Source: Geotalea daltonii FRC-32
GTDB lineage: Bacteria > Desulfobacterota > Desulfuromonadia > Geobacterales > Geobacteraceae
Direction: 5' to 3'
DNA length: 32,000 bases
NCBI RefSeq assembly: GCF_000022265.1
Contig: NC_011979.1
Coordinates: 1,590,001-1,622,000 of the forward strand
How positions within the stretch are numbered: position 1 is the first letter of the stretch; each line of letters opens with the position of its first letter. A program made the position numbers and the translations under genes. This document shows, piece after piece, positions 2,646 through 32,000 of this stretch. The notes under the pieces were generated by a model, which was not told the DNA's origin, ran no database searches, and saw only the letters and a list, made by a program, of their open reading frames with translations.

Positions 2646-3257
2646 ATGGGGGCAAACAGGCTGAATATCACCTGGCATGACAGGGTACTGACCAAGGGTG
2701 ACTATCTTAAACGCAATGGGCACCAGCCTTTGGTGTTGTGGTTTACCGGACTTTCAGGGTCAGGCAAATCAACGCTTGCCCATGCCGTTGAAGAAGAGCT
2801 GTTCAGGAAAGGCTGCTATACGTATATACTGGATGGCGACAATATACGCCACGGACTCAACAGCGACCTTGGATTTTCTGAGGCTGACCGGAGGGAGAAC
2901 ATCAGGCGTATCGGGGAAGTTGCCAAGCTTTTTGTTGATGCCGGCATTATAGTTCTGGCAGCATTTATTTCTCCTTACCGGGAAGACCGGGAGAGGGTTC
3001 GGGCACTTTTCGAACCTGCTGAATTTATCGAGGTATTTGTCAATTGCGACCTTGCTGTATGTGAAAGCCGCGATCCGAAAGGGCTTTATCGCAAGGCACG
3101 TTCAGGAGAGTTGAAGCAGTTCACCGGGATCGACAGCCCATATGAAGTGCCTTTTAGCCCCGAGCTGGTTGTCAATACTGCATGCAGTACGGTGAAAAGC
3201 GGTGTCCAGTCGGTGCTTGCATTCGTTAGGGACCGGGGACTGATAAACGGTGATTAG
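2646..3257 (+). CDS. cysC: Adenylylsulfate (APS) kinase
   Basis: AGGAG 6-7 nt upstream of the ATG. Canonical motifs [71 protein letters not shown]. The stop codon TAG (3255-3257) lies inside heptamer array A. Confidence 0.95.
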
Positions 3258-3353
3258 TGATTGGTGATTGGTGAACTCCGAACTTCGAACTTCGAACTTC
3301 GAACCTCGAACCTCGAACCTCGAACTTCGAACGTAAAACGTAGAACCTCGAAT
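3249..3353 (+). repeat. Heptanucleotide tandem array A (15 units in a single 7-nt phase)
   Basis: Read directly: GGTGATT AGTGATT GGTGATT GGTGAAC TCCGAAC TTCGAACx3 CTCGAACx3 TTCGAAC GTAAAAC GTAGAAC CTCGAAT. It starts in the last two codons of cysC and ends 19 nt before the cysD ATG. Confidence 0.95.
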
Positions 3354-3372
3354 TAGCTTACAGGGGTTGAAG

Positions 3373-4170
3373 ATGACGCATCTGGAAGAACTTGAAAATA
3401 AATCTATTTATATATTGCGCGAAGCATACAAGAATTTCGACAATCTCTGTATGCTCTGGTCCATTGGCAAGGATTCGACGGTGATGCTCTGGCTGGTGAG
3501 AAAGGCATTCTTCGGTCACTGTCCGATCCCGCTGGTGCACATCGATACCTCATATAAAATCAAGGAGATGATTGCCTATCGCGATCAATTGGCCGAGGAG
3601 TGGGGGCTGACCCTGGTGGTGGGGCAAAACAAGGATGCTCTGGAAAAAGGCATGAACCCTGCGCTGGGGCGTATGGAATGTTGCACTGCCTTGAAGACTG
3701 AGGGGCTACGACGCACCCTTGCCGATAAAAAATACAATGGAGTCATCGTCGGAGTACGTTCCGACGAAGAGGGTACCAGGGCAAAGGAGCGTTATTTTTC
3801 CCCCAGGGACAAGAACAACGACTGGGACTTCAGGGAGCAGCCCCCCGAGTTGTGGGACCAGTTCAAGACCCGCTTCGAGCCCGGAACCCATGTCCGTATC
3901 CACCCCCTCCTGGATTGGACCGAGATCAATATCTGGGAATATATAAAAAAGGAAAATATTCCGGTGATTCCACTGTATTTCGACCAGGGTAGCGGCAGTC
4001 GCTATCGCAGCCTTGGTTGTGCCCCCTGCACCGGCGCCATCCAGTCCACAGCGAAAACTGTCGATCAAATTATCGAAGAGCTGCGCAATACCAAGGTTGC
4101 AGAGCGTTCCGGGCGCGCCCAGGACGCCGATCGCGGCATGGAAAAATTGCGCAAGGATGGGTACATGTAG
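3373..4170 (+). CDS. cysD: Sulfate adenylyltransferase subunit 2 (PAPS reductase-fold ATP pyrophosphatase)
   Basis: [22 protein letters not shown]..., SIGKDS PP-loop motif, C-terminal [18 protein letters not shown], all typical of CysD. ATG 3373 is preferred over the TTG at 3367 given by the ORF track. Confidence 0.95.
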
Positions 4171-4174
4171 AGGC

Positions 4175-4202
4175 GGTGATTGGTGATTGGTGATCGGTGG
4201 AA
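4175..4202 (+). repeat. Heptanucleotide array B (GGTGATT GGTGATT GGTGATC GGTGGAA)
   Basis: Starts 4 nt after the cysD stop with the junction AGGCGGTGATTGGTGATT and ends 2 nt before the ATG of the four-helix-bundle gene. Confidence 0.9.
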
Positions 4203-4204
4203 GT

Positions 4205-4585
4205 ATGTCTGGGGATCGGCCTAAAGCTAGAAGTCATAAAGACCTTCAGGTGTGGCAGCGAGCAATGTCTTTGGTGGTGTCCCTTTATGAATTGCTCAGG
4301 TCTTTTCCTGCCGATGAACGCTTCGGCTTGGTTGACCAGATCAAGCGTTCGGCTATCTCCATCCCTTCGAATATTGCTGAAGGGGCTGCACGACAGACCT
4401 CAAGAGAATACATTCAATTTCTGTATATCGCTGCCGAGTCAGCGGCAGAGCTTGACACGCAGCTTATACTTGCCCAGAGGCTTGGTTTTTCCACAGAGAT
4501 CGAAACTCAACTGGAAGAATTGCAGATTGTCCGCAAGCAGCTGAACGTAATGATCACAACACTGCGAGCAAACCATGAAAAGTGA
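4205..4585 (+). CDS. Four-helix-bundle protein (23S rRNA intervening-sequence protein family; Avd-like)
   Basis: [85 protein letters not shown] is the hallmark sequence of this family. ATG 4205 is preferred because the upstream extension (4187) only reads through the repeat. Confidence 0.9.
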
Positions 4586-6434
4586 AAAATCACCAGGCAC
4601 CATTCACCAATCACCAACGTCCAATCACGAATCACGACGAATTACGAATCACCAATCACGAATCACCAATCACCAATTTTTACAAGTGGTTTTCGTCGGC
4701 CATGTGGACCATGGCAAATCTACCCTGCTCGGCCGCATTTACGCCGACACCGATTCCCTTCCCGTCGGCCAATTGGAAAAGGTACGGGCAATTTGCGAGC
4801 AGCAGGGAAAGACATTCGAATATGCCTTTCTTTTCGATGCCTTTCTTGAAGAGCAAGAGCAGGGAATCACCATTGACACTGCCCGCACATTTTTCAACTG
4901 GGGCAACAGGCACTACATAATCATCGATGCCCCAGGCCACAAAGAATTCCTCAAGAACATGATATCCGGTGCAGCAAGGGCGGAGGCCGCAGTTCTTATC
5001 ATCGATGCAGCCGAAGGGGTTGCGGAGCAGTCGAAACGTCACGGTTACATGCTGAGTTTGCTGGGGATCAGGCAGATAGCCGTAGTCGTAAACAAGATGG
5101 ATCTCGTAAATCATGATCAAAAAGTTTTTGAAGCAATAGTTACCGAATACTCAGCCTTCCTTAAAGAGCTCGGTGTCACACCGCGTCAATTCGTTCCTGC
5201 CAGCGCCAGAAACGGAGATAACGTGGTCACGGGCAGTGATGCCATGCCCTGGTATGACGGCCCTACCGTTTTGGAATCTCTCGGCCGTTTCGAAAAACTG
5301 CCCAGTGGAGAAGAATTGCCGTTGCGTTTTCCGGTGCAGGACGTCTATAAATTCGATGCCCGCCGGATCATTGCCGGCCGGGTCGCTGCAGGTATGTTGA
5401 AGGTCGGCGACAGTCTGGTCTTTTCCCCTTCCAACAAGACGGCGGTGATCAAAACCATCGAGGCTTTCAATGTTGCCCATCTGCCTCTTTCTGCCGGAGT
5501 CGGCAAATCTACCGGCTTCACTCTGGACGAACAGATTTTTGTCGAACGTGGCGAGGTAGCATCGCTGAAGGAATCCTTGCCGGAGGTAACCGACCTCTTC
5601 CGCGCCAATCTCTTCTGGATGGGCAAAAATCCCATGGTCGGCAATCGTCCCTATCTGCTTCGCCTGGCAACGAAGGAAGTGGAAATGGAGCTGGCCGAAA
5701 TCCATCGCATCATCGATGCCGGCAGCCTTGACCCGGTAATGGCCAGGGAGCAGATAGAAAAGAATGACGTCGCCGAAGTCACCATAAGAACTAAAAAGCC
5801 TCTGGCTCTGGATTGTTTTTGCGACTGCGACATCACCGGGCGTTTCGTCGTTGTGGATGGCTATGATGTTTGCGGTGGGGGCATCGTCACCCAGGTACTG
5901 GACAACGACCAGGAGACCTTTCGCCGGGAGGCCAGGCAGCGCGATATTGCCTGGCGCCGCGGAGAAGTGCAACTTGGCGAGCGGGTGCAACGGAACGGGC
6001 ACAACCCGGGCATCATCCTCTTTACGGGAGAAAGCGGCACCGGCAAGGCCCGCCTTGCACGTCATCTGGAGCGCCGGCTTTTCGATGGCGGGCGTCAGGT
6101 GTATCTCCTTGATGGGAAGAACCTGCTTCTCGGGCTTGGCTCCGACGTCACCGAACAAGACAAGGAGGAGATGGTCCGGCGGTTCGGCGAAGTTGCCCAG
6201 ATTCTGTTGCGAGCCGGGCAGATTGTGGTATCGACCACCAATACCTTTGCCCAGGCAGATCATCAGATCATCAGCACCCTTGTTTATCCCCACCAGGTAA
6301 TTTCCGTGCACATGTCCTTTGCCAGGGGGGCTGTACCGGAAAAAACCGATCTCCGCTTTCTCGAATCGGACGACCTGAAAAAGGCCGCCAAACAGATTGT
6401 GGAGAAGATGGAAGAGTTGGGGATCCTGCTGTAA
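4575..6434 (+). CDS. cysN: Sulfate adenylyltransferase subunit 1 (GTPase) fused to a degenerate APS-kinase-like C-terminal domain
   Basis: [15 protein letters not shown] (G1), DAPGH, NKMD motifs and EF-Tu-like domains II/III. The C-terminal ~150 aa resemble CysC but with altered motifs. Start is uncertain: ATG 4575 translates array C as a 35-aa extension, and the only alternative is GTG 4686, just 4 codons before GHVDHGKS. Confidence 0.9.
4588..4674 (-). repeat. Heptanucleotide array C, reverse orientation (AATCACC-type, 12 units plus a 3-nt ACG insertion)
   Basis: AATCACC AGGCACC ATTCACC AATCACC AACGTCC AATCACG AATCACG [ACG] AATTACG AATCACC AATCACG AATCACC AATCACC. This is the reverse complement of the GGTGATT family and lies between the four-helix-bundle stop (4585) and the conserved CysN G-domain. 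Confidence 0.95.
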
Positions 6435-6438
6435 AGGC

Positions 6439-6589
6439 GGTGATTGGTGATACTTCGGTGATTGGTGATTGGTGAAGGGTGAAGGGTGAAGGGTGAAGGG
6501 TGAAGGGTGAAGGGTGAAGGGTGAAGGGTGAAGGGCACGACCTCGAACATGGAACATAGAACGTAGAACATAGAACATAGAACATAGAA
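6439..6589 (+). repeat. Heptanucleotide array D (composite)
   Basis: GGTGATT GGTGATA [CTTC] GGTGATT GGTGATT (GGTGAAG)x9 GGCACGA CCTCGAA CATGGAA CATAGAA CGTAGAA (CATAGAA)x3. The 19 units 6457-6589 share one phase. It begins 4 nt after the cysN TAA with AGGCGGTGATTGGTGAT and ends 19 nt before the wzm ATG. Confidence 0.95.
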
Positions 6590-6608
6590 CGGATTTTGCG
6601 GGGTAAAG

Positions 6609-7421
6609 ATGCAAGCATTAAGGATGTTCAGTAACTTCATTGCCGAATTGTGGTCGCGTCGGCACATGATCATCGAGCTGGCAAAACGGGATTTCAAAAC
6701 CAAGTACCTCGGCTCTTACCTGGGGATGCTCTGGGCTTTTGTTCACCCGACAGTGTATATAATTATTCTCTGGTTCGTTTTTCAGGTGGGCTTCAAGTCA
6801 CAGCCCCAGGCCAATTATCCGTTCGTCCTCTGGATGATGTGCGGCATCGTTCCCTGGTTCTTCTTCAGTGAATGCCTGCAGAGCGCTACCATGTCCATCA
6901 TCGACAACAGCTTTCTTCTTAAAAAGATGGCTTTCAGCATCGGCATGCTTCCCATCGTCAAAATTCTCTCCGCGCTGGTAATCCACTTTTTCTTTATCCT
7001 GGTCGTTTTCGTCATGATCCTTCTCTATGGGCTGCCGATTTCCCTTCACAGCCTGCAGGTTTTTTACTACCTGTTCGCCGCCATAACACTGCTCCTTGGC
7101 CTGTCCTGGCTTACATCCTCACTGGTGGTTTTCCTCAGGGATGTGGGGCAATTGGTTGCCATGGCTTTGCAGTTCGCCTTCTGGGTGACCCCCATCTTCT
7201 GGTCGGCAAAGATCCTCCCCGATAAGTACGCTAACCTGGTCAAGCTCAACCCTGTCTACTACCTGGTGGAAGGCTACCGGGAAAGCTTCATCTACAAGAC
7301 CTGGTTTTGGGAGAGCCACTATGTGCTGACCCTCTATTTTTGGGCTGTTACCGGCATTATTTTTGTGCTGGGTGCGGTCGTGTTCAGGAGGCTGCGGCCA
7401 CATTTCGCGGATGTTTTGTAG
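6609..7421 (+). CDS. wzm: ABC-2 type polysaccharide export permease
   Basis: N-terminal ELWSRRHMIIELAKRDFKTKYLGSYLGMLWAFVHP signature and six predicted hydrophobic helices, typical of Wzm/KpsM/TagG. Confidence 0.9.
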   Translation: MQALRMFSNFIAELWSRRHMIIELAKRDFKTKYLGSYLGMLWAFVHPTVYIIILWFVFQVGFKSQPQANYPFVLWMMCGIVPWFFFSECLQSATMSIIDNSFLLKKMAFSIGMLPIVKILSALVIHFFFILVVFVMILLYGLPISLHSLQVFYYLFAAITLLLGLSWLTSSLVVFLRDVGQLVAMALQFAFWVTPIFWSAKILPDKYANLVKLNPVYYLVEGYRESFIYKTWFWESHYVLTLYFWAVTGIIFVLGAVVFRRLRPHFADVL

Positions 7422-7423
7422 AC

Positions 7424-7497
7424 GGTGATTGGTGATTAGACGGTGATTGGTGATTGGTGATTGGTGATTGGTGGATGGTGGATGGTGGATGGTGGAG
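7424..7497 (+). repeat. Heptanucleotide array E
   Basis: GGTGATTx2 [AGAC] GGTGATTx4 GGTGGATx3 GGTGGAG. The first 36 nt, including the wzm TAG, form an 18-nt tandem duplication TAGACGGTGATTGGTGAT x2 (7419-7454). Confidence 0.95.
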
Positions 7498-7563: not shown

Positions 7564-7821
7564 ATGCTGAAAGCAGCTAATATAACTGTTCGTATCAAAC
7601 CAACAACCAAGATGCGCATCGATGCCCTGGCGCAGGCTACCAAGCGCTCTAAGTCCTATGTCGTCGAGGAGGCGTTGGAACAGTACCTGGAGGTAAACGA
7701 GTGGCAGGTTAAAGGGATCGAGGCCGCCTTACATGAGGCCGACAGTTCCGATGCTGAATGGGTTGATCATAAAGATGTCCTGGCAAAGTGGGAGGCCAAG
7801 TTTGCGGATAAAGTGGCTTAG
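7564..7821 (+). CDS. Ribbon-helix-helix (CopG/ParD-like) antitoxin
   Basis: MLKAANITVRIKPTTKMRIDALAQATKRSKSYVVEEALEQYL is an RHH fold signature. It overlaps the downstream toxin gene by 20 nt. Confidence 0.8.
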   Translation: MLKAANITVRIKPTTKMRIDALAQATKRSKSYVVEEALEQYLEVNEWQVKGIEAALHEADSSDAEWVDHKDVLAKWEAKFADKVA

Positions 7822-8086
7822 ACAGGCGCTTCTTGATCTCGATGAAGTAGAAAGCTATATTGCCAGGGACAATCCAGTTGCAGCTATAGGTGTGGTAACT
7901 AAAATAGTCAAAATGGTTTCTGTTCTTGAGAAGCAGCCGGGACTTGGTCGTCCTGGTCGCGTCCCAGGCTCCAAGGAACTTGTTATTCCCGATACTCCTT
8001 TCATTGTTCCTTACCGGGTGAAGGATGGCTTGGTGCAGGTATTACGGGTCTATCATACATCAAGAAGGTGGCCAGATAACATTTAG
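7802..8086 (+). CDS. RelE/ParE-family toxin
   Basis: RQALLDLDEVESYIARDNPVAAIGVVTKI...GRPGRVPGSKELVIPDTPFIVPYRV..GLVQVLRVYHTSRRWP is a typical ParE layout. TTG 7802 with GGAGG 6 nt upstream is preferred over ATG 7733, which would overlap the antitoxin by 89 nt. Confidence 0.75.
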   Translation: MRIKWLRQALLDLDEVESYIARDNPVAAIGVVTKIVKMVSVLEKQPGLGRPGRVPGSKELVIPDTPFIVPYRVKDGLVQVLRVYHTSRRWPDNI

Positions 8087-9524: not shown

Positions 9525-10544
9525 ATGATCATGAAGCTGGTGCAAATGGTTCAGAAGGTAAAAAATATTTGTCTTAACAATGTAGAAAAAACAAACACTA
9601 TGGCGCAAAGACATTATAAATTTGCATATATAGAACCTGTCAGAGCATGTCCGGTAAAGTGTATTCCTTGTCCTGTTGGCCGAAACGTACTTTTTAAGCA
9701 TCCTGTGGTGGTCTTGGATCTGGAGATTGCTCGCAGGTGTTTTGCAAAGCTCAGGGGACAATTCGGTATAGATACATTAATAATGGGGAATTGGGGGGAG
9801 CCATTACTTCATCCGCAATTCCCTGAACTCGTGCAGCTGGCTAGGAGTTCAGGGTTTAGACAGATAGAAGTATCAACTTCACTTTCAGTAAAATGCGATA
9901 TGGCTAGTATTATAGGTGCAGGGCTAGACTGTATCCAGATTTCTATGTCAGGAATAACAAAAGACGTTTACAATCAAAGTCACAGATTTGGAGACTTTGA
10001 CCTTATATTTAAGAATCTTGAATCTTTAGTCAGTCTTAATAAAGTAAAAACTACCCCGGCTGGCATTGTTATTCGCTGGCATCGTTATCACCATAATGAA
10101 GCTCAGTTTGAGGCAGTAAGCAACTTTTGTAAAGATCTTGGCTTAGGTCTATTGCCATACTTCGGCCATCTCGGTAGTATAGAGGCTATGCGGGACTGGT
10201 CCAATCATCAACTTGAAGAACCTCTTAAATCTTTTGTTTATAACTCTGTCTTTACTGAATTTATAGAAAAAGCATGTATTCTAAATAAAGGGGCCACAAA
10301 TTGTAAGCAGTCGGAGTTTGTGGTTTTAGATGCCGACGGTTCGTTGGTATTTTGTTGCTCTTGCTATAAAAACTACAAAACGAATGCTCCCTTTCTAGCG
10401 ATGAGTGCAAGCGAGATAGAATCTTTTAAATCCCCCAATTCAACTATTTGCAGTCTTTGTCTTGGTAGCGGCTGGTCTGGGTATATGAATAGACCAAAGA
10501 CACTGGAGGAGTATGATGGGTGCATTTCTTTGGGCGCAACATAG
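9525..10544 (+). CDS. Radical SAM enzyme with SPASM/twitch-like C-terminal Cys cluster
   Basis: CPVKCIPC (CxxxCxxC), GNWGEPLLHP (GGE-type SAM motif), C-terminal CKQSEFVVLDADGSLVFCCSC (C-x11-G-x4-C) and CSLC. Start is uncertain (9525, 9531 or ATG 9600, which lies 12 codons before the Cys motif). Confidence 0.85.
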   Translation: MIMKLVQMVQKVKNICLNNVEKTNTMAQRHYKFAYIEPVRACPVKCIPCPVGRNVLFKHPVVVLDLEIARRCFAKLRGQFGIDTLIMGNWGEPLLHPQFPELVQLARSSGFRQIEVSTSLSVKCDMASIIGAGLDCIQISMSGITKDVYNQSHRFGDFDLIFKNLESLVSLNKVKTTPAGIVIRWHRYHHNEAQFEAVSNFCKDLGLGLLPYFGHLGSIEAMRDWSNHQLEEPLKSFVYNSVFTEFIEKACILNKGATNCKQSEFVVLDADGSLVFCCSCYKNYKTNAPFLAMSASEIESFKSPNSTICSLCLGSGWSGYMNRPKTLEEYDGCISLGAT

Positions 10545-10705: not shown

Positions 10706-12037
10706 ATGAGTCACGATAGGCAAATCGCAATTGCAGTAAAAAATCTAACCAAAGTCTACAAGCTTTACGATACCCCATTGGACCGAGTTAAAGAGTCGAT
10801 AAATCCATTTAGCCGGAAGTATCACAAAGATTTCTATGCGCTCAATGATGTAAGCTTTGACATTGAAAAGGGATCCACTATTGGTATTATCGGCAAAAAT
10901 GGATCAGGTAAATCAACTCTTCTCAAAACAATAACAGGAGTGCTGACACCATCAAGTGGTAGTGTTACTGTCAATGGAAAAATTTCTGCTCTGCTTGAGC
11001 TAGGCGCAGGGTTTAATACTGAGTTGACAGGTATTGATAACATTTACTTTAATGGGACCCTCCAAGGGTACACTAAAGATGAGATAGATTTAAAGTTAGA
11101 TGAAATTCTATCTTTTGCGGATATTGGAGAGTTTGTGTTTCAACCTGTCAAAAGCTATTCAAGCGGCATGTTTGTTCGGTTGGCTTTTGGAGTGGCAATC
11201 AATGTTGATCCTGATATATTAATCGTTGATGAAGCTCTGGCAGTAGGGGATATAAAATTTCAGCGCAAGTGTTTTTCCAAGATCGAAGAATTTCATAAGA
11301 AAGGTAAAACTATAATTTTTGTTTCGCACGGTTTAGATACAATCAACCTTCTCTGCGACACTGCATATCTGCTTGATGGAGGCAGATTGATTGAAGAAGG
11401 CCTGCCCAAGAATGTTACTAAAGTATATCAAAAAATGATGTTAGGCGAAGACACTATTAGTTCTACAACGGACGTATGTTTGGGAAAAGAGTTAGAATTC
11501 CTATACGACCTACCGTCTGAGCAGGATTGTGAGTTTTATACAAATGAATACGACACCCAGAAATTAAACGAATTAGTTAAAGATAAAATCCAAAAGTGGG
11601 ACGGCCATAAAAAGGCAGAAATCATAGATTGTGGTATTTGGGATGCGCTGGGTAATAAAGTCACTCTTCTGGAATGTGGTGCACATTACACTTTTTATTC
11701 GAAGATACTTATTCATGTAGATTTAGAAGTCATACATGTTGGTTTCCCTATCAAAAATGTTAAAGGCCTAATGCTTTTTGGTGTAAACAGCGAGATACAA
11801 AAAGTTGCAGTTACGCCAAAAACAAAGGGAAATGTTGTTGAGGGTCGTGTCGACGTTACGATGTGGCTGGCGCCAGGCAATTATTTTCTCTCGTTTAGAG
11901 CTGCTACAAGACAGGAAGTTTTCGACGAGTTGAATGATCAAGTACACTTTGTTGTAACAGGCGGCAACCATACCCTCAATGCTCTTTCCGTAGTGAATTT
12001 GGAGCCAAAGGTGACCCTCAGAACTTTGGCTTTCTAA
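10706..12037 (+). CDS. wzt: Polysaccharide export ABC transporter ATP-binding protein with C-terminal carbohydrate-binding (Wzt_C-like) domain
   Basis: Walker A GKNGSGKST, signature SYSSGM, Walker B ILIVDE, H-loop VSHG. An extra ~170-aa beta-rich C-terminal domain (AEIIDCGIWDALGNKV...GNYFLSFRAA...VHFVV) matches terminus-recognising Wzt proteins. Confidence 0.9.
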   Translation: MSHDRQIAIAVKNLTKVYKLYDTPLDRVKESINPFSRKYHKDFYALNDVSFDIEKGSTIGIIGKNGSGKSTLLKTITGVLTPSSGSVTVNGKISALLELGAGFNTELTGIDNIYFNGTLQGYTKDEIDLKLDEILSFADIGEFVFQPVKSYSSGMFVRLAFGVAINVDPDILIVDEALAVGDIKFQRKCFSKIEEFHKKGKTIIFVSHGLDTINLLCDTAYLLDGGRLIEEGLPKNVTKVYQKMMLGEDTISSTTDVCLGKELEFLYDLPSEQDCEFYTNEYDTQKLNELVKDKIQKWDGHKKAEIIDCGIWDALGNKVTLLECGAHYTFYSKILIHVDLEVIHVGFPIKNVKGLMLFGVNSEIQKVAVTPKTKGNVVEGRVDVTMWLAPGNYFLSFRAATRQEVFDELNDQVHFVVTGGNHTLNALSVVNLEPKVTLRTLAF

Positions 12038-12129
12038 GGATGACAGCTGAAGGCTCTGTTCAAATTTAATGTTGTTTTCGGGGTTTTTTAAAAATAATAA
12101 AACAACCCTCAGGAGTGTCCGCCTTACTT

Positions 12130-12936
12130 ATGGGATTAAAATTATCGTTATTCAGACCAGAATCAAAGCCAATTGAAAAATCCTTCGTATTTATAACAGG
12201 AACGCCTCGTTCAGGCACATCAATGCTAACAAAAGTTATTGATGCGCATCCAGATGCTGCGATCTTGATGGAAAATCTCTTTGGAAATAGACGTAGGCAC
12301 TGGGAGCGTGCAAGCTTCTGGAATGAACCTCAATTATTACAGGCAGAGATTGAAAAAGTATATTCTCCTTTCAAACAGCAACTGATTGGCAACAAGGTTT
12401 GTACTCCTGATGTTTGGTCAGCTGAGGACATAGTAACCTTTTGCCAGTTTTTTTCAGATTCCAAATTCATCTTCATTGTCAGAGATCCAATAGAAGTAGC
12501 ACTTTCAAGATTCAGGCGGGAAAATTATGATAAAGAATTTAATTCTTTCGCAAGACAGCATATGCAATTAGACTTCAGAAGCAGATCTTTTACCTATACA
12601 TCTTCATGGGCAGGCAGCATCCAAAATTATTGGTTTCTCAAAGAGCTTTTTCCAACTAAAACACTACTTATTTATTACGATGACTTTTGCAACACGTTTG
12701 AAGATCATTTACATACATTAGTTGATTTCCTTGATCTCCCTTTCTCAGAAAAAATGCTTAAATGGCATGAACTACCACATCATGACTCAGAAGGGGTTTT
12801 ACAGGTTAACTTAAAATACGATGATGAGCCGGTTTTTGTTAACAAAAGCAAGAGTTCGTCCCTTACTGACGAACTAATGTTGGCAATGGCCACTATTGAA
12901 CCATTGTATAATCGGTGGAAGAAGAGATCTCTCTGA
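12130..12936 (+). CDS. PAPS-dependent sulfotransferase family protein
   Basis: 5-prime-PSB loop FITGTPRSGTSML and 3-prime-PB segment FIVRDPIEVALSRF. The ORF track starts at GTG 12115, which overlaps the AGGAG, so ATG 12130 is preferred. Confidence 0.8.
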   Translation: MGLKLSLFRPESKPIEKSFVFITGTPRSGTSMLTKVIDAHPDAAILMENLFGNRRRHWERASFWNEPQLLQAEIEKVYSPFKQQLIGNKVCTPDVWSAEDIVTFCQFFSDSKFIFIVRDPIEVALSRFRRENYDKEFNSFARQHMQLDFRSRSFTYTSSWAGSIQNYWFLKELFPTKTLLIYYDDFCNTFEDHLHTLVDFLDLPFSEKMLKWHELPHHDSEGVLQVNLKYDDEPVFVNKSKSSSLTDELMLAMATIEPLYNRWKKRSL

Positions 12937-12983: not shown

Positions 12984-13355
12984 ATGAGTACAAAGCAACT
13001 CTCTAGTGTTAAGATCATGTCCTTTGGATTTAAGTATGGCAGCCCAAACGCAAATTACTATTTTGATGTGGGCTTTATAAAAAATCCAGCAAGGGATCCG
13101 AAATGGAATTTTTTTTCTACGCCTGATGAAGAAATGCGCAACTTCGTGCTGAGCCAGAAACCTGTTGTTGAATTTTTAAAGTATATAATCCCCCTCATAA
13201 AAATACTGGCACCTCTTGATCAAGCCCAAGTTTTCGCTTTTGGTTGTAATTCTGGTCGCCATCGCAGTTATATTCTAGTTGAGGAGATTGCTCGCCAGCT
13301 AAAAGAGTGCGGGGTGCCCGCTAAAATCGTACACCGTGAGGATGATTTACAGTGA
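12984..13355 (+). CDS. Stand-alone RapZ (YhbJ/YvcJ) C-terminal-domain-like protein
   Basis: SFGFKYGSPNANYYFDVGFIKNPARDPK and AFGCNSGRHRSYILVEEIARQL match, from memory, the RapZ C-terminal segments [29 protein letters not shown] and AIGCTGGKHRSVYIAEQLA. Only 12 residues precede the first motif, so the P-loop N-domain is absent. Confidence 0.75.
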   Translation: MSTKQLSSVKIMSFGFKYGSPNANYYFDVGFIKNPARDPKWNFFSTPDEEMRNFVLSQKPVVEFLKYIIPLIKILAPLDQAQVFAFGCNSGRHRSYILVEEIARQLKECGVPAKIVHREDDLQ

Positions 13356-14287
13356 GCTCTAATAATGAACGTATTTGGTGCCCTAGCGGCGAACTTAGAC
13401 CCTTAAGTTTTGCACAGGCCCCGAAAAAAGACCTTGCATTTATCGTCGTAAACCGAAATCGTCGCGATTTGACTGACTATCTCTGTCACCAGATTCTCAA
13501 TTTTACGAACACTACGGATCTAACTTATGATCTGTTTGTAGTTGATATCGGTTCGGAACCTGCCCAACGTAGCCCTTTTACCACCATTGAATACGAAGAT
13601 AGCGACTTTCGAGGCAAGTGTTATGCACACAATGTAGGGGTGCGTCAAGCGGCATTAACCGCTGATTACCGTTATTATTGGGCTATGATGAATGACCTAC
13701 GTTTTGATGGGCAGCCAGATGCTATGATGCGGATGATAGAATTAATGGACAGTAATCCAGAAATTGGAATTTTAAGCCCTACAAATATTGGGGAAGGTAA
13801 GGAATATCCTGGTGCTGATCCACAACCAGGACACGTATTTAGAAAGGTGCCGGTGTGCGATTATCTTGCACTTATGTTGCGTGGCCAAGTCTTGCATGAG
13901 GTAGGATTTCTTAACCCCGAATTTCGCTATTGCTGGGGAGCGATACATGAACTGTCATATAAGGTATACCGTACAGGTAAATGGTCTATTGCGTATTGTG
14001 ATACTGTTCATTATGAACATTTAGGTGGCACTACCTATGGTAAGACAAAAAATGTTGTTAGCCGCGACGAATACACATTGAATGCAAAAAGGTTCGCAGC
14101 TTCTTACTTTGTGAAGCAATACGGGCGGGACTGGGATGAAAAATTTACAGATGCATTGCCTACAGATGTCACCTTAAAAGAAACGTACTCACGTCATCGA
14201 ACCTACTGGGAGGAATCTTTAGTTTCTGAAAAAAATTGCCGTAATTCCTTTTTTCATAATATCTGGCGAAAAATCAAAAATGGCTGA
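13352..14287 (+). CDS. GT2-like glycosyltransferase (divergent)
   Basis: GTG start overlaps the upstream TGA (GTGA). LAFIVVNRNRRDLTDYL...LFVVDIGSEP...AHNVGVRQAA...MMNDLRF follows the GT-A fold order, but the DxD is atypical. Confidence 0.6.
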   Translation: MSSNNERIWCPSGELRPLSFAQAPKKDLAFIVVNRNRRDLTDYLCHQILNFTNTTDLTYDLFVVDIGSEPAQRSPFTTIEYEDSDFRGKCYAHNVGVRQAALTADYRYYWAMMNDLRFDGQPDAMMRMIELMDSNPEIGILSPTNIGEGKEYPGADPQPGHVFRKVPVCDYLALMLRGQVLHEVGFLNPEFRYCWGAIHELSYKVYRTGKWSIAYCDTVHYEHLGGTTYGKTKNVVSRDEYTLNAKRFAASYFVKQYGRDWDEKFTDALPTDVTLKETYSRHRTYWEESLVSEKNCRNSFFHNIWRKIKNG

Positions 14288-15061
14288 ATGGGCATTATGA
14301 AGAATTGTATTATTTTGGGATCAGGAAGAAGTGGCACAAGTATGGTTGCCGGTACTTTGGCGAAATCAGGCTACTTTATGGGGGATAACCTTTATCCAGC
14401 CCGAGAAAGCAATCCTAAGGGGTTTTTCGAAGACCCATTTATAAATGGTATAAACGAGGAAATTTTAGAAAGGATGTGCTTTGGCGCCGTAGAGAGCATC
14501 AAAAGGAAATTAAGCGGTATACGATTGACAGATGGGCAGAGATGGCTAGAGAAGATACCACTGGATGCTAGACTTCCTTCGTCTATGGCACTAACAGAGA
14601 AAATACTAACGGCTGTAAATAAGGCACCTTTCTGCTATAAAGATCCGCGGTTTAGCTATACCCTACCGATTTGGCGTCCTTACTTACAAAACACGGTCTT
14701 CATTTGCGTATTTCGAGAACCTACTGTCACAGCACAAAGCATTATCAAAGAGTGCAGCGCGATGGAATATTTAAAGTCAGTTAAAATGAGTTTTAAGTAC
14801 GCCTTGGAAATTTGGTTCCATATTTACAACCACATACTTACGACTCATATTCATGAGGGAGAGTGGCTGTTTCTGCATTATGATCAGGTGCTGAGTTTTG
14901 ATGGAGCTTCGAGAATAGAGGCGATTGCAGAATCGGCCACAGACAAATCGTTTCCAGAAGAACAATTTAAACGTTCTTCTTCAACTTTAGAATGCCCAAG
15001 TAAACATCGAAAAATGTATGCCCAGTTGTGTGAATTAGCAAGATATCAGCCATCTTATTAG
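14288..15061 (+). CDS. PAPS-dependent sulfotransferase family protein
   Basis: ILGSGRSGTSMVAG (5-prime-PSB loop) and VFREPTVTAQSIIKE (3-prime-PB). The ATG directly abuts the upstream TGA. Confidence 0.8.
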   Translation: MGIMKNCIILGSGRSGTSMVAGTLAKSGYFMGDNLYPARESNPKGFFEDPFINGINEEILERMCFGAVESIKRKLSGIRLTDGQRWLEKIPLDARLPSSMALTEKILTAVNKAPFCYKDPRFSYTLPIWRPYLQNTVFICVFREPTVTAQSIIKECSAMEYLKSVKMSFKYALEIWFHIYNHILTTHIHEGEWLFLHYDQVLSFDGASRIEAIAESATDKSFPEEQFKRSSSTLECPSKHRKMYAQLCELARYQPSY

Positions 15062-16234: not shown

Positions 16235-17224
16235 ATGGCTATCAATTTGATAGTCCAATACTATAGGTGTTTGGACGATGTAAGACAGCAGGAAATCGAT
16301 TCCTGTCTACAAAATAATCTATTAAATGAATATCTAGATGCAATCCATCTACTGACAGAGATCCTTTATGATTTTCAAAACTTCAAGAACAGTGAAAAAA
16401 TTGTCCAGTCTGTAGTCGGTAAAAGACTGTCATACAAAAAAGCTTTTGAATATGCAACGTCACTCGGTGGGGACCATATCTGGATACTAGCTAATGCCGA
16501 CATCTATTTCGATGACAATTTGAAATATCTGAATGGATTTCCCTGCAATGTGGTTTATTCCTTGACTCGACACGAAGTGCAGCCTGATGGCTCGGTGAAA
16601 TTCATGGATGAGCAGTATGCTCATGCAAGTCAGGATGCTTGGATATTCAGCAGCCAGTTGGACTTTACGGGTATGTACACAGAGTTTAATCTAGGTGTAC
16701 CAGGTTGCGATAACAGGATCGCATACGAGTTTTTACGCACAGGCCACACCGTAGTAAATCCTTCAAGGATCGTTAAATGTTTCCACCTGGATTTAACAAA
16801 AGAGATAGACATCGAAAAAAGGACTGCCGCCTACATCACTCTCCACACGAATGAGAATATTCTCGATGGTAAGGTCGCCCCACCCCCTTATCAGTTTTTC
16901 ATATATCCAACTGATCATCTTGGGGTGGAACAGATTGATGTATATAAGGATATGCAAAAGAAATTAATCGACCTCACCCATGCATACCAGGATTTAGACC
17001 GATATACTGCTCACAATGCTGAATTGGAAAGTAGAGTTGTCAATCTCAATCGAGAATTGGAAGAATGTCGCGAAATGATTTTAGAGCGAAACAATCAGAT
17101 AGCCGAGAGGGATAACCAAATAGCGCGAAAGGATGCCCAAATAGCGGAAATATTAAACTCTGTAACATGGAAAATGATGACACCTTTACGAAAATGCCTC
17201 GATTTCATTAAAAGACATCACTAG
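16235..17224 (+). CDS. Protein with an unassigned transferase-like N-domain and a C-terminal coiled coil ending in a W-K/R-x-x-T/A-P-L/I-R motif
   Basis: N-domain QDAWIFSS...LGVPGCDNRIAYEF...VVNPS...FHLD. C-terminus ELESRVVNLNRELEECREMILERNNQIAERDNQIARKDAQIAEILNSVTWKMMTPLRK (heptad-like). Confidence 0.6.
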   Translation: MAINLIVQYYRCLDDVRQQEIDSCLQNNLLNEYLDAIHLLTEILYDFQNFKNSEKIVQSVVGKRLSYKKAFEYATSLGGDHIWILANADIYFDDNLKYLNGFPCNVVYSLTRHEVQPDGSVKFMDEQYAHASQDAWIFSSQLDFTGMYTEFNLGVPGCDNRIAYEFLRTGHTVVNPSRIVKCFHLDLTKEIDIEKRTAAYITLHTNENILDGKVAPPPYQFFIYPTDHLGVEQIDVYKDMQKKLIDLTHAYQDLDRYTAHNAELESRVVNLNRELEECREMILERNNQIAERDNQIARKDAQIAEILNSVTWKMMTPLRKCLDFIKRHH

Positions 17225-30096: not shown

Positions 30097-32000
30097 ATGA
30101 GTGCATCTTGGCTGAACGGTAAAATACCCGCTTTCTTTTTTGGAAGGATACGACACGCAGCTGTTGTTCACGGCATGATACTGATGCTCGTGGGTTTTTT
30201 TGCCTACGCCAATACCTTCGACGCCCAGTTCAATTTCGACGACGTACCGGCGATTCTCGGCAATCCCACTGTCAGGAGCGCGGAATCAGTGACAGATCCC
30301 CTGGCGATACGAGGGAACAGGGGGGTGGGAAATTTCAGCTTTGCCCTGAATTACAAGATTGCCGCCGAGCTCACGGGAGACGGCTTTTCCGTCCGCGGCT
30401 ATCATTATTTCAACCTTGCCGTCCATCTTGCCAATGCTTTGCTGGTCTATCTGCTGGTGATCCTGACTATCCGGAGGTCCACATCAGGGGAAAGCAGTGA
30501 GTGGCGGGGCAGGGGGATCGCTTTTTTGGCCGCTCTCCTTTTCGTCAGCCATCCGTTGCAGACCCAGGCTGTAACCTATATTGTCCAGCGCTTCACCTCT
30601 CTGGCCACAACCTTTTACCTATTATCACTGGTCTTTTACATATTCGCCCGCAGCCAGCGGGGTGACTCGACAAACGGCAACCGTTTGAAGGCTGCCGTGT
30701 TTTGGGCACTCTCAATCGTGCTGGCGGCACTGGCAATGGGAACCAAGGAAATTGCCATAACCCTTCCATTTACAATCATCCTCTACGAATTCCTTTTTTT
30801 CAGGGGAAGCATCGTCAAACGTTTACTGGCAGCCGGCGCCTTTCTCCTCACCCTGATCATCATTCCCCTCAGCATTATCGGTGCATCCGGCGGACAGCTT
30901 TTGAGCAGGATAGAGGCTGCAACAAAAGTTCAGACGGACATGTCGCGGCTGGATTACCTGTACACCCAGTTCAAGGTGGTAGTGACCTATTTGAGGCTGC
31001 TTTTTTTCCCGGCCGGGCAGAACCTGGAGTACGACTACCCCGTTTCCCATTCCTTTTTCGAGGCGGGGGTGATTCTCTCTTTCCTGCTGCTACTGGCGAT
31101 ATTTGGGCTTGGCGTCTATTTCCTTTATCGTTCGAAGTTCGAGGTTCGAGGTTCGAAGTTCGAAGTTGGCCAAGCGCATTCACCAATCACCAATCACCAA
31201 TCACCAATAACCAATCACCGCCTCATCGCCTTCGGCATTTTCTGGTTTTTCATTACCCTGTCGGTTGAGTCCAGTTTCATTCCCATTGTGGATGTCATCT
31301 TCGAGCATCGCGTCTATCTACCGTCGGTGGGCTTCTTCATCGCCGTCGCCACCCTGGTCGTCCTGGGTGCCGAAAAGCTTTCCCTGGGAAGGCCCAGGGT
31401 TGCCGACGGCCTGCTGGTATCCATATTGCTGCTGTCCTGTGTGCTGGCGCTGCTTACCTTCAATCGCAACCGGGTCTGGGCCGATGAGATAACCCTCTGG
31501 GAGGATGTAGCCGCCAAATCGCCGAACCTTTCCAGGCCATGGAACAACCTGGGCTACGCCTATCTCAAGCATCGTCTGCCGAAAAAGGCCATCCCGGCCC
31601 TCATTACCTCCATAACCATTTCTCCCGGTTCTCCCGATGCCTGGAACAACGTCGGAATGGCACTCACGCAGCTTGGCAGCTATACCGGGCGCTTCAGTCC
31701 CACTTATGAACTGTTCGATATGAGTGCCGGCATCACCTCGACCTATCAGAGCGAGTGGTTTGCCCTGGCTTACAACAATCTCGGCCTGGCCTACGATTCC
31801 ATGGGACAGGTCAATGAATCCATCGAGAACTTCCAGAAAGCGATCTCCATGAACCCGCGCCTGGCTCAGGCCTATTACAATCTGGGACTGGCCTTTCTTG
31901 CCATAAAAGACAAAGGGCAGGCTGCAGATCAGTATCGAATGTTGAGATCCCTCGATCCGGAACTGGCGGCAAAGCTGCGGGAAGCGGTGATTGGTGATTG
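30097..32000 (+). CDS. GT-C-fold (PMT/TMTC-like) polytopic membrane protein with C-terminal TPR repeats; 3-prime end beyond the window
   Basis: Not in the ORF track because no stop occurs. I read frame 1 open from ATG 30097 to nt 32000. First-loop FNFDDVPAILGNP (DD motif), many hydrophobic helices, EHRVYLPSVGFF, then TPR-like WNNLGYAY..., AYNNLGLAYDSMGQ..., AYYNLGLAFLAIKD.... Contains array F in frame. Confidence 0.85.
   Translation, partial: MSASWLNGKIPAFFFGRIRHAAVVHGMILMLVGFFAYANTFDAQFNFDDVPAILGNPTVRSAESVTDPLAIRGNRGVGNFSFALNYKIAAELTGDGFSVRGYHYFNLAVHLANALLVYLLVILTIRRSTSGESSEWRGRGIAFLAALLFVSHPLQTQAVTYIVQRFTSLATTFYLLSLVFYIFARSQRGDSTNGNRLKAAVFWALSIVLAALAMGTKEIAITLPFTIILYEFLFFRGSIVKRLLAAGAFLLTLIIIPLSIIGASGGQLLSRIEAATKVQTDMSRLDYLYTQFKVVVTYLRLLFFPAGQNLEYDYPVSHSFFEAGVILSFLLLLAIFGLGVYFLYRSKFEVRGSKFEVGQAHSPITNHQSPITNHRLIAFGIFWFFITLSVESSFIPIVDVIFEHRVYLPSVGFFIAVATLVVLGAEKLSLGRPRVADGLLVSILLLSCVLALLTFNRNRVWADEITLWEDVAAKSPNLSRPWNNLGYAYLKHRLPKKAIPALITSITISPGSPDAWNNVGMALTQLGSYTGRFSPTYELFDMSAGITSTYQSEWFALAYNNLGLAYDSMGQVNESIENFQKAISMNPRLAQAYYNLGLAFLAIKDKGQAADQYRMLRSLDPELAAKLREAVIGD
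31130..31220 (-). repeat. Heptanucleotide array F, reverse orientation, inside the GT-C/TPR coding sequence (13 units, one phase)
   Basis: GTTCGAA GTTCGAG GTTCGAG GTTCGAA GTTCGAA GTTGGCC AAGCGCA TTCACCA ATCACCAx3 ATAACCA ATCACCG. This is the reverse complement of an array-A-type (GGTGATT)n-(TTCGAAC)n composite. It is translated as [31 protein letters not shown]. Confidence 0.95.
31986..32000 (+). repeat. Heptanucleotide array G (start only; GCGGTGATTGGTGATTG at the window edge)
   Basis: Same GCGGTGATTGGTGATT junction as the other forward arrays, here at the C-terminal end of the GT-C/TPR ORF. Confidence 0.8.

Follow-up and report, generated by a model that had tools for sequence, protein, structure and literature searches.

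What does the C-terminal domain of an RNA adaptor do when it is encoded on its own, between a sulfotransferase and a glycosyltransferase? This question is raised by a small gene of Geotalea daltonii FRC-32, found in a stretch of 32,000 nucleotides (nt; NC_011979.1, positions 1,590,001 to 1,622,000; below called the window), whose product we refer to as RapZ_C. RapZ has been studied almost wholly as an adaptor of small RNAs, and the native ligand and the chemistry of the pocket in its C-terminal domain (CTD) are unsettled. Domain-only RapZ_C proteins are widespread, have kept this pocket, have shed RNA-contact residues and are linked to one family of GT-A fold glycosyltransferases, which makes them a simple system for studying pocket function. 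Based on the near-constant linkage, we conclude that RapZ_C most likely serves the glycosyltransferase and not RNA.

A complete RapZ C-terminal domain encoded by an intact gene

The protein and its partner are encoded by two overlapping genes:

12984..13355, + strand: stand-alone RapZ C-terminal domain protein (RapZ_C), 123 amino acids (aa), with an ATG start, a PF22740 match and an AlphaFold2 (AF2) model
13352..14287, + strand: partner GT-A fold glycosyltransferase (assigned by AF2 and Foldseek), 311 aa, with a GTG start overlapping the RapZ_C stop

The sequence AAAGGATGG is found directly 5′ of the RapZ_C start codon. At the other end, the stop codon TGA (13353-13355) and the start codon GTG (13352-13354) of the following open reading frame (ORF) overlap to form GTGA. 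A first reading of the locus, made from the letters alone (the sequence-only reading), had proposed translational coupling to a glycosyltransferase, which agrees with this overlap and with the GT-A fold predicted for the downstream product.

RapZ_C matches the Pfam family PF22740 (RapZ C-terminal domain) with an E-value of 2.5e-25 and 89.5 bits (gathering score 27 bits), covering model positions 2-119 of 121. The NCBIfam RapZ equivalog NF003828 aligns at its positions 159-277 of 278 only and scores 69.8 bits, under its cut-off of 244. At the sequence level, the E. coli RapZ-CTD (PDB 5o5s) is matched with E=6e-11, and the motifs SFGFK(H/Y)G.P and GC..G.HRS, which the sequence-only reading had quoted, are indeed aligned. 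An AF2 model built from 43 family members has a predicted local distance difference test score (pLDDT) of 92.5; in a Foldseek search of PDB it matched 5o5s with a template modelling (TM) score of 0.82 and a root mean square deviation of 1.9 Å. The 16 top PDB matches are all RapZ, with other folds at E>0.04. A protein-tyrosine-phosphatase-like fold, prompted by the CxxGxxRS loop, was considered separately and dropped, as it found no support in Foldseek and amounts to a motif-level remark. The product of 12984..13355 is a complete RapZ C-terminal domain, and the claim of a domain-only protein lacking the N-terminal domain holds.

A short protein of this kind might be the leftover of a full-length rapZ broken by a frameshift or an assembly error. 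The two-domain build of RapZ, in which a Walker A/B P-loop domain (PF03668) precedes the C-domain, is not found in RapZ_C, and a RapZ N-domain profile run against the six-frame translation of the window gave a single match, a 13.7-bit P-loop in the APS kinase gene at approx. 2.6 kb; the N-domain is present in no frame. Only 47 nt separate RapZ_C from the upstream ORF, which is an intact sulfotransferase. Further, the identical RapZ_C protein occurs on two independent assemblies, and at least 106 homologous clusters are equally short. The chance that the gene is such a remnant is negligible: a frameshift or pseudogene origin is refuted by the missing N-domain, the independent assemblies and the short clusters, as the sequence-only reading had expected. 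The upstream sulfotransferase was also tried as a diverged RapZ N-domain (a “split RapZ”) and rejected, with an hhalign probability of 1.8% and a match of the P-loop only.

RapZ_C is encoded almost always directly upstream of one GT-A family

A survey of domain-only versions and their neighbourhoods had been suggested by the sequence-only reading. The stand-alone family comprises at least 106 clusters, all of 106-166 aa, with PF22740 as the only domain. Its gene linkage was assessed in approx. 25 mostly metagenomic loci, among which 22 distinct loci reached from RapZ_C were evaluable. A GT-A gene follows immediately downstream of RapZ_C in 19 of the 22, and lies at most 3 kb away in two further loci (L010 and L107). 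In 17 of 21 pairs, the two genes overlap or lie no more than 8 nt apart. One of the 19 loci (L094, 531-2646) has a GT-A gene with a normal start that becomes divergent after approx. 45 residues and is followed by a tyrosine-recombinase-like ORF; a mobile element has apparently broken this copy by integrase insertion.

The linkage was also recovered from the opposite direction. In reverse searches starting from three divergent GT-A members (P0322, P0319 and P0308), a RapZ_C gene overlapped the GT-A start on the upstream side in all three cases. Moreover, RapZ_C and GT-A proteins co-vary in their pairwise identities (r=0.66, Mantel p=2e-4). RapZ_C is, in summary, almost always found directly upstream of one GT-A family, in loci for surface glycans that are sulfated or methylated.

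The partner protein itself is not recognized by current family models. No Pfam or NCBIfam family matched the product of 13352..14287, which stays below every glycosyltransferase threshold; the best profile scores were weak (Glyco_transf_7N, E=0.1, and, for a homolog, Glycos_transf_2, E=0.074). Its AF2 model has a pLDDT of 93.2 and gave 327 PDB matches at E≤1e-3, of which the 50 listed are glycosyltransferases. Foldseek placed ppGalNAc-T2 first (E=1.7e-10) and also found PcManGT, WrtF, RmlT and K4CP. Judged by this model, the protein is a GT-A fold glycosyltransferase of a family without a Pfam model. The family has 78 clusters. About one quarter carry a C-terminal fusion to a class-I S-adenosylmethionine (SAM) methyltransferase, with the sugar O-methyltransferase EvdMO1 as its best match in PDB, and one cluster is fused to a sulfotransferase. 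Invariant residues include the Asp of an MNDL motif and the His of an HLGG motif, which could be the counterparts of metal-binding motifs.

The stand-alone family keeps the pocket core and loses RNA-path residues

To describe how the stand-alone family differs from RapZ, 43 stand-alone and 79 full-length C-domains were aligned with E. coli RapZ. The full-length set stems from a genome-contig scan with the family alignment, in which 79 of 80 loci were full-length RapZ (ORFs of at least 283 aa) and one was stand-alone, the motif SFGFKYG.P being common to both; a C-terminal sub-alignment made the metagenome and viral scans specific for stand-alone RapZ_C. Among the 43 aligned stand-alone proteins, identity to the window protein is 48% or more; full-length RapZ reaches at most 40%. 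The comparison is as follows (E. coli numbering):

S166, F167, G168, F169, K170, G172, P174, D182, N188, P189: invariant or nearly so in both sets
C247, G250, H252, R253, S254, H276, R277: invariant or nearly so in both sets
R184: R in 100% of full-length, G or S in stand-alone
H190: Y or H in full-length, A in 100% of stand-alone
W191: W or Y in full-length, R in 100% of stand-alone
R196: R or K in full-length, variable in stand-alone
R238: K or R in full-length, D in 100% of stand-alone
T248: T in 100% of full-length, N or S in stand-alone
G249: G in 100% of full-length, A or S in stand-alone

K170, C247, H252, R253 and S254 are 100% conserved in both sets. In E. coli RapZ, a pocket binding sulfate or malonate is formed by H190, T248, G249, H252 and R253, with C247 beside it (PMC5737377), and is the proposed site of glucosamine-6-phosphate (GlcN6P; PMC5737377, PMC9841335). 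Each of the exchanges H190A, R253A, K170A and C247S abolishes RapZ function (PMC9841335). In the window protein, the anion pocket consists of K17, C88, R92, H93 and R94, all invariant; D28, G91, S95, H117 and R118 are invariant in the stand-alone family as well, and R37 is a putative pocket residue specific to this family. From this pattern, we conclude that the stand-alone family keeps the anion-binding loop with a remodelled rim.

The path of the RNA GlmZ over E. coli RapZ runs along K170, R184, K194, R196, R211, R238 and K251 (PMC9841335). Among these basic residues, only the equivalents of K170 and K251 (K17 and R92) are conserved in the stand-alone family. The C-terminal RNA motif of RapZ, RxRxKNxQxRHRTxxKRK (PMC7525490), is reduced to HR; the window protein ends with HREDDLQ. 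Hence, most of the features with which E. coli RapZ holds GlmZ are gone.

In a library clustered at 50% identity, the family comes down to approx. 10 representatives, beyond which there are further short proteins that consist of RapZ_C alone and are more distantly related. Two longer forms were seen: P0123 (349 aa), in which an FkbM-type methyltransferase is naturally fused to RapZ_C, and P0113 (243 aa), a tandem with two RapZ_C stretches. A more distant stand-alone RapZ_C (P0118, 43% identity, locus L120, 1375-4033) has the canonical-like loop GCTGGHHRS. On its upstream side, it overlaps a gene for a 129-aa cytidylyltransferase; downstream, a 184-aa protein with a DDD motif is followed by a larger protein whose N-terminus looks GT2-like by eye. 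This locus may represent a second, independent association of RapZ_C with a glycosyltransferase.

Among the BFVD matches to the RapZ_C model are predicted proteins of Klosneuvirus, Hyperionvirus, Pithovirus, Marseillevirus, Harvfovirus and Yasminevirus which resemble RapZ_C and are short or stand-alone. To our knowledge, a GlmZ/RNase E system is not expected in giant viruses, so these proteins point to roles of the domain beyond RNA adaptation.

Genomic contexts of the pair

Which genes accompany the pair elsewhere? In loci for ABC-transporter-dependent polysaccharides, the gene order is wzm, wzt, sulfotransferase, RapZ_C, GT-A (with or without the methyltransferase fusion), radical SAM/SPASM and sulfotransferase. 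This full order is found in Desulfocurvus, in metagenome-assembled genomes of Kiritimatiellae and Aegiribacteria and in one metagenome contig, and a variant of it in Geobacter argillaceus and in the window. Another setting is a flagellin island, in which the pair occurs with FliC, FliD, FliS, a Sulfotransfer_2 gene and methyltransferases. Finally, predicted phage contigs from IMG/VR encode the pair followed by a sulfotransferase-methyltransferase fusion (L113/L117, 7651-8780; L118, 9812-10986), close to CobS/CobT-like genes and many small ORFs without a Pfam match; a phage protein family annotated as “ATPase” (phrog_18111) matches RapZ_C weakly.

Across O-polysaccharide, flagellin and phage contexts, the constant element is the RapZ_C:GT-A pair, while the type of glycoconjugate varies. 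Its usual companions are sulfo- and methyltransferases. A sulfotransferase is encoded within a few kb of the pair in 13 loci; L010 has a weak sulfotransferase match only, together with an APS kinase, and no sulfotransferase was present among the ORFs tested in L107. The sequence-only reading had suggested a locus-specific sensor, translationally coupled to the glycosyltransferase. The coupling is confirmed; the locus-specific part is not, as one GT-A family recurs in all three contexts. As the module is also found on phage contigs and in a flagellin-glycan locus, it may be a mobile cassette for glycan decoration.

The C-terminal domain of Wzt is normally variable. In four loci which share the same module order (L005, L009, L011 and L013) and come from Desulfobacterota, Kiritimatiellae, Aegiribacteria and a metagenome contig, these domains are nevertheless 41-54% identical, and this unusual conservation suggests a common exported end-structure. 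They show no similarity to the Wzt C-domains of the window and G. argillaceus (L003), which form the other module variant.

Databases already name such proteins “RapZ C-terminal domain-containing protein”. Among the papers searched, we found no description of a stand-alone RapZ_C, nor of a link between RapZ_C and a glycosyltransferase. We believe the following to be new: a distinct stand-alone RapZ_C subfamily, recognizable by a diagnostic set of residues, the near-obligate association of this subfamily with a GT-A family without a Pfam or NCBIfam model, and a recurrent sulfo/methyl decoration module present in several phyla and on phage contigs. For annotation, this GT-A family and the recurrent sulfotransferase/methyltransferase module can now be flagged.

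The locus in the window

The window has a G+C content of 46.8% and encodes the following genes relevant to the pair, where PAPS is 3′-phosphoadenosine 5′-phosphosulfate:

12115..12936, + strand: sulfotransferase, 273 aa, 47 nt upstream of RapZ_C (Sulfotransfer_3 E=4.2e-20, Sulfotransfer_1 E=6.8e-10)
14288..15061, + strand: second sulfotransferase-like protein, 257 aa, directly 3′ of the GT-A gene (Sulfotransfer_3 E=1.3e-4, below cut-off)
10706..12037, + strand: Wzt ABC-transporter ATPase with a C-terminal carbohydrate-binding domain (ABC_tran E=1.4e-21, Wzt_C E=1.3e-25)
6609..7421, + strand: Wzm ABC-2 permease (ABC2_membrane E=3.8e-19)
9525..10544, + strand: radical SAM protein (Radical_SAM E=4.5e-8)
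2646-3257, + strand: cysC, PAPS supply (APS_kinase E=4e-71)
3367-4170, + strand: cysD, PAPS supply (PAPS_reduct E=1.8e-43)
4575-6434, + strand: cysN-cysC fusion, PAPS supply (GTP_EFTU and APS_kinase)
16235-17224: 329-aa protein matching no Pfam family, with a coiled coil over its C-terminal third that contains the near-repeat NNQIAERDNQIARKDAQIAE
3245-3352, 4171-4199, 4571-4677, 6421-6590, 7419-7497 and 31127-31230: intergenic heptanucleotide tandem-repeat arrays

Both a Wzm permease and a Wzt ATPase bearing Wzt_C are thus encoded in the window, next to a long series of GT2 and GT4 glycosyltransferases and nucleotide-sugar enzymes. Given the PAPS-supply genes, Wzm/Wzt, the two sulfotransferase-like genes and the run of glycosyltransferases, “sulfated-glycan locus”, the term chosen in the sequence-only reading, is a fair description. 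A homolog of the second sulfotransferase-like protein, 64% identical, occupies the same position in L093. Radical SAM homologs adjoin the pair in L003, L005, L009, L010, L011, L013, L095, L105, L107 and L110, among others. Coiled coils serve as chain-length rulers in other ABC-transporter O-antigen systems, and the coiled-coil protein at 16235-17224 is a candidate chain-length determinant on that ground.

The heptamer arrays (units GGTGATT/AATCACC, GAACTTC, GGTGAAG, GAACATA and TGGTGGA) fill several gaps close to cys and wzm genes, with inverted copies near 31.2 kb. Similar short heptamer repeats in tandem are known from some cyanobacteria. What had been taken for repeat-rich transcripts adjacent to RapZ_C are these intergenic heptamers, located more than 5 kb away. 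No RNA family of Rfam matched the window, heptamer arrays included, and scans for promoters and terminators around the operon performed no better than on shuffled sequence. Two further genes interrupt the series: one for a 23S rRNA intervening-sequence protein (4187-4585) between cysD and cysN-cysC, and a ParE toxin gene (7733-8086) between wzm and the remaining glycan operon.

Proposed role of RapZ_C and alternative explanations

In our proposal, to which we assign about an even chance, RapZ_C binds a phospho- or sulfo-ligand and works as a small subunit partnering the GT-A protein that the overlapping gene encodes. The RapZ_C:GT-A pair is the constant core of a glycan-decoration module, into which sulfotransferases and sugar O-methyltransferases are recruited as neighbours or as fusions to GT-A. 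The anion pocket (K17, C88, R92, H93 and R94), together with R37, would bind a sugar ligand by its phosphate or sulfate group; this could be an acceptor end carrying sulfate or phosphate, a nucleotide sugar, PAPS or 3′-phosphoadenosine 5′-phosphate (PAP). On binding, the ligand could be positioned for GT-A, or the enzyme could be gated. A plausible role of the module in Wzm/Wzt loci is to make a terminal structure that is read by the C-terminal domain of Wzt for export, and it may there define a new, sulfate-based terminal export signal. In the window, this module is part of a Wzm/Wzt ABC-transporter-dependent polysaccharide locus with PAPS-synthesis genes of its own.

Several points weigh against this proposal. 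Intervening genes part RapZ_C from GT-A in L010 and L107, and at L108 no GT-A gene was found within the 740 nt of downstream sequence present. As H190 is replaced by Ala, T248 by Asn or Ser and G249 by Ala or Ser, the ligand specificity must differ from that of the E. coli pocket. We infer both a physical RapZ_C:GT-A complex and the identity of the ligand, and the role of a cap or terminator is read from synteny and the co-conservation of the Wzt C-domain. In addition, the invariant Cys by the pocket and published hints at CTD chemistry would fit a catalytic role too.

Instead of acting as a structural subunit, RapZ_C might be a metabolite sensor: on binding a compound such as GlcN6P, UDP-N-acetylglucosamine (UDP-GlcNAc), PAPS or PAP, it would turn the glycosyltransferase, or the pathway, on or off by allostery, matching glycan decoration to precursor supply. 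The invariant pocket core is compatible with a sensor, E. coli RapZ-CTD binds GlcN6P and UDP-GlcNAc governs the interactions of B. subtilis YvcJ and GlmR (PMC9841335, PMC7525490), and tight coupling to one enzyme would be expected of a dedicated regulator no less than of a structural subunit. However, with residues 190, 248 and 249 changed, GlcN6P specificity is unlikely to carry over. UDP-GlcNAc is indeed bound by the Bacillus homolog, as the sequence-only reading stated, but it is GlmR (YvcK) and not YvcJ that stimulates GlmS (PMC7525490, PMC9841335). Mutation of the Walker A motif in the N-domain of YvcJ interferes with UDP-GlcNAc binding (PMC7525490, PMC9841335), and an N-domain on which this binding depends (PMC9841335) is absent here. 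Start/stop overlap and methyltransferase fusion also look more like a stoichiometric enzyme component, and we regard a sensor as unlikely. Somewhat less probable still is that RapZ_C is an enzyme itself, whose Cys-X5-Arg-Ser loop between a strand and a helix (C88-N-S-G-R-H-R94-S95) acts on a phospho- or sulfo-sugar or on PAP, as a phosphatase or through a transferase intermediate, and so makes or clears substrate for the glycosyltransferase and the sulfotransferases. The invariance of C88, G91, H93, R94, S95, K17, D28, H117 and R118 would fit such a role. Furthermore, C247S inactivates E. coli RapZ; in that study, a catalytic role is considered possible and the E. coli pocket is reported to contain density for a “chemically transformed” GlcN6P product (PMC9841335). 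Phosphatase activity is reported for B. subtilis YvcJ in work cited by PMC7525490. On the other hand, Foldseek found no phosphatase fold, the top PDB matches after RapZ having E>0.04 and dual-specificity phosphatases in BFVD reaching only E≥0.27 at a probability of at most 0.12. The motif likeness is a reading of sequence alone, and no isolated RapZ CTD has an assigned activity.

The idea called worth testing in the sequence-only reading, an RNA-binding factor that regulates the locus post-transcriptionally in the manner of RapZ on GlmZ, fares worst among these functional alternatives and is very improbable. It is true that the CTD is the RNA-binding part of E. coli RapZ, where the pocket touches RNA phosphates (PMC9841335), and that the K170 and K251 equivalents are kept. 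Nevertheless, the equivalents of R184, R196 and K/R238 are lost or charge-reversed, position 190 is Ala, the C-terminal RNA motif is absent (PMC7525490), and the N-domain is missing with which RapZ builds the tetramer used in RNA presentation. The window yielded no Rfam match, the heptamer repeats are at least 5 kb off, and the family travels with an enzyme gene through unrelated locus types and phages.

Returning to the proposal of a partner subunit, a bolder extension of it is conceivable, which we consider doubtful but worth stating: the RapZ CTD could at root be a component of carbohydrate enzymes, RapZ_C and GT-A an unrecognised two-component glycosyltransferase, and the role as an RNA adaptor a later re-use of the pocket. 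If this were true, RapZ_C would supply a phospho- or sulfo-sugar site or a Cys-dependent step, and the pair would equip bacterial and phage-encoded glycans with a cap or decoration that is sulfated or methylated.

Comparison with known systems

E. coli RapZ (YhbJ; 5o5s, 8b0i) shares with RapZ_C the fold, the motifs SFGFK.G.P and GC..G.HRS, and the pocket core K170, C247, H252 and R253. Unlike E. coli RapZ, RapZ_C has no P-loop N-domain, and hence none of the N-domain contacts which build the RapZ tetramer; positions 184, 190, 191, 196, 238, 248 and 249 are altered, and the basic C-terminal motif is missing. Full-length rapZ is usually part of the rpoN operon, whereas the RapZ_C gene lies in glycan loci beside GT-A. 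The partner protein resembles GT2/GT27-like GT-A enzymes (ppGalNAc-T2, PcManGT, WrtF, RmlT) in its predicted fold, but remains under all Pfam and NCBIfam glycosyltransferase thresholds. We know of no GT-A enzyme that needs a RapZ_C-type partner.

The Wzm/Wzt loci invite comparison with capping by the kinase-methyltransferase WbdD and with Wzt carrying a carbohydrate-binding domain, since caps are recognized by the Wzt C-domain in ABC-transporter O-antigen pathways (PMC9445017, PMC3482155). Likewise, the module adjoins wzm-wzt, its Wzt has a C-terminal binding domain that is co-conserved with the module, and methyl and sulfate transfer activities could cap the non-reducing end (PMC3482155, PMC9445017). 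In contrast, the module is not related in sequence to WbdD or WbbB, sulfate transfer would take the place of phosphorylation, and the RapZ_C:GT-A pair is also present without Wzm/Wzt, capping being putative here.

In its working principle, RapZ_C may have its closest analogy in B. subtilis YvcJ. YvcJ is two-domain, binds UDP-GlcNAc in a Walker A-dependent way and has GlmR instead of a glycosyltransferase as its partner. Like RapZ_C, it is a RapZ-family protein for which RNA binding lacks evidence, and it acts via a partner protein, GlmR, under the control of a sugar nucleotide (PMC7525490).

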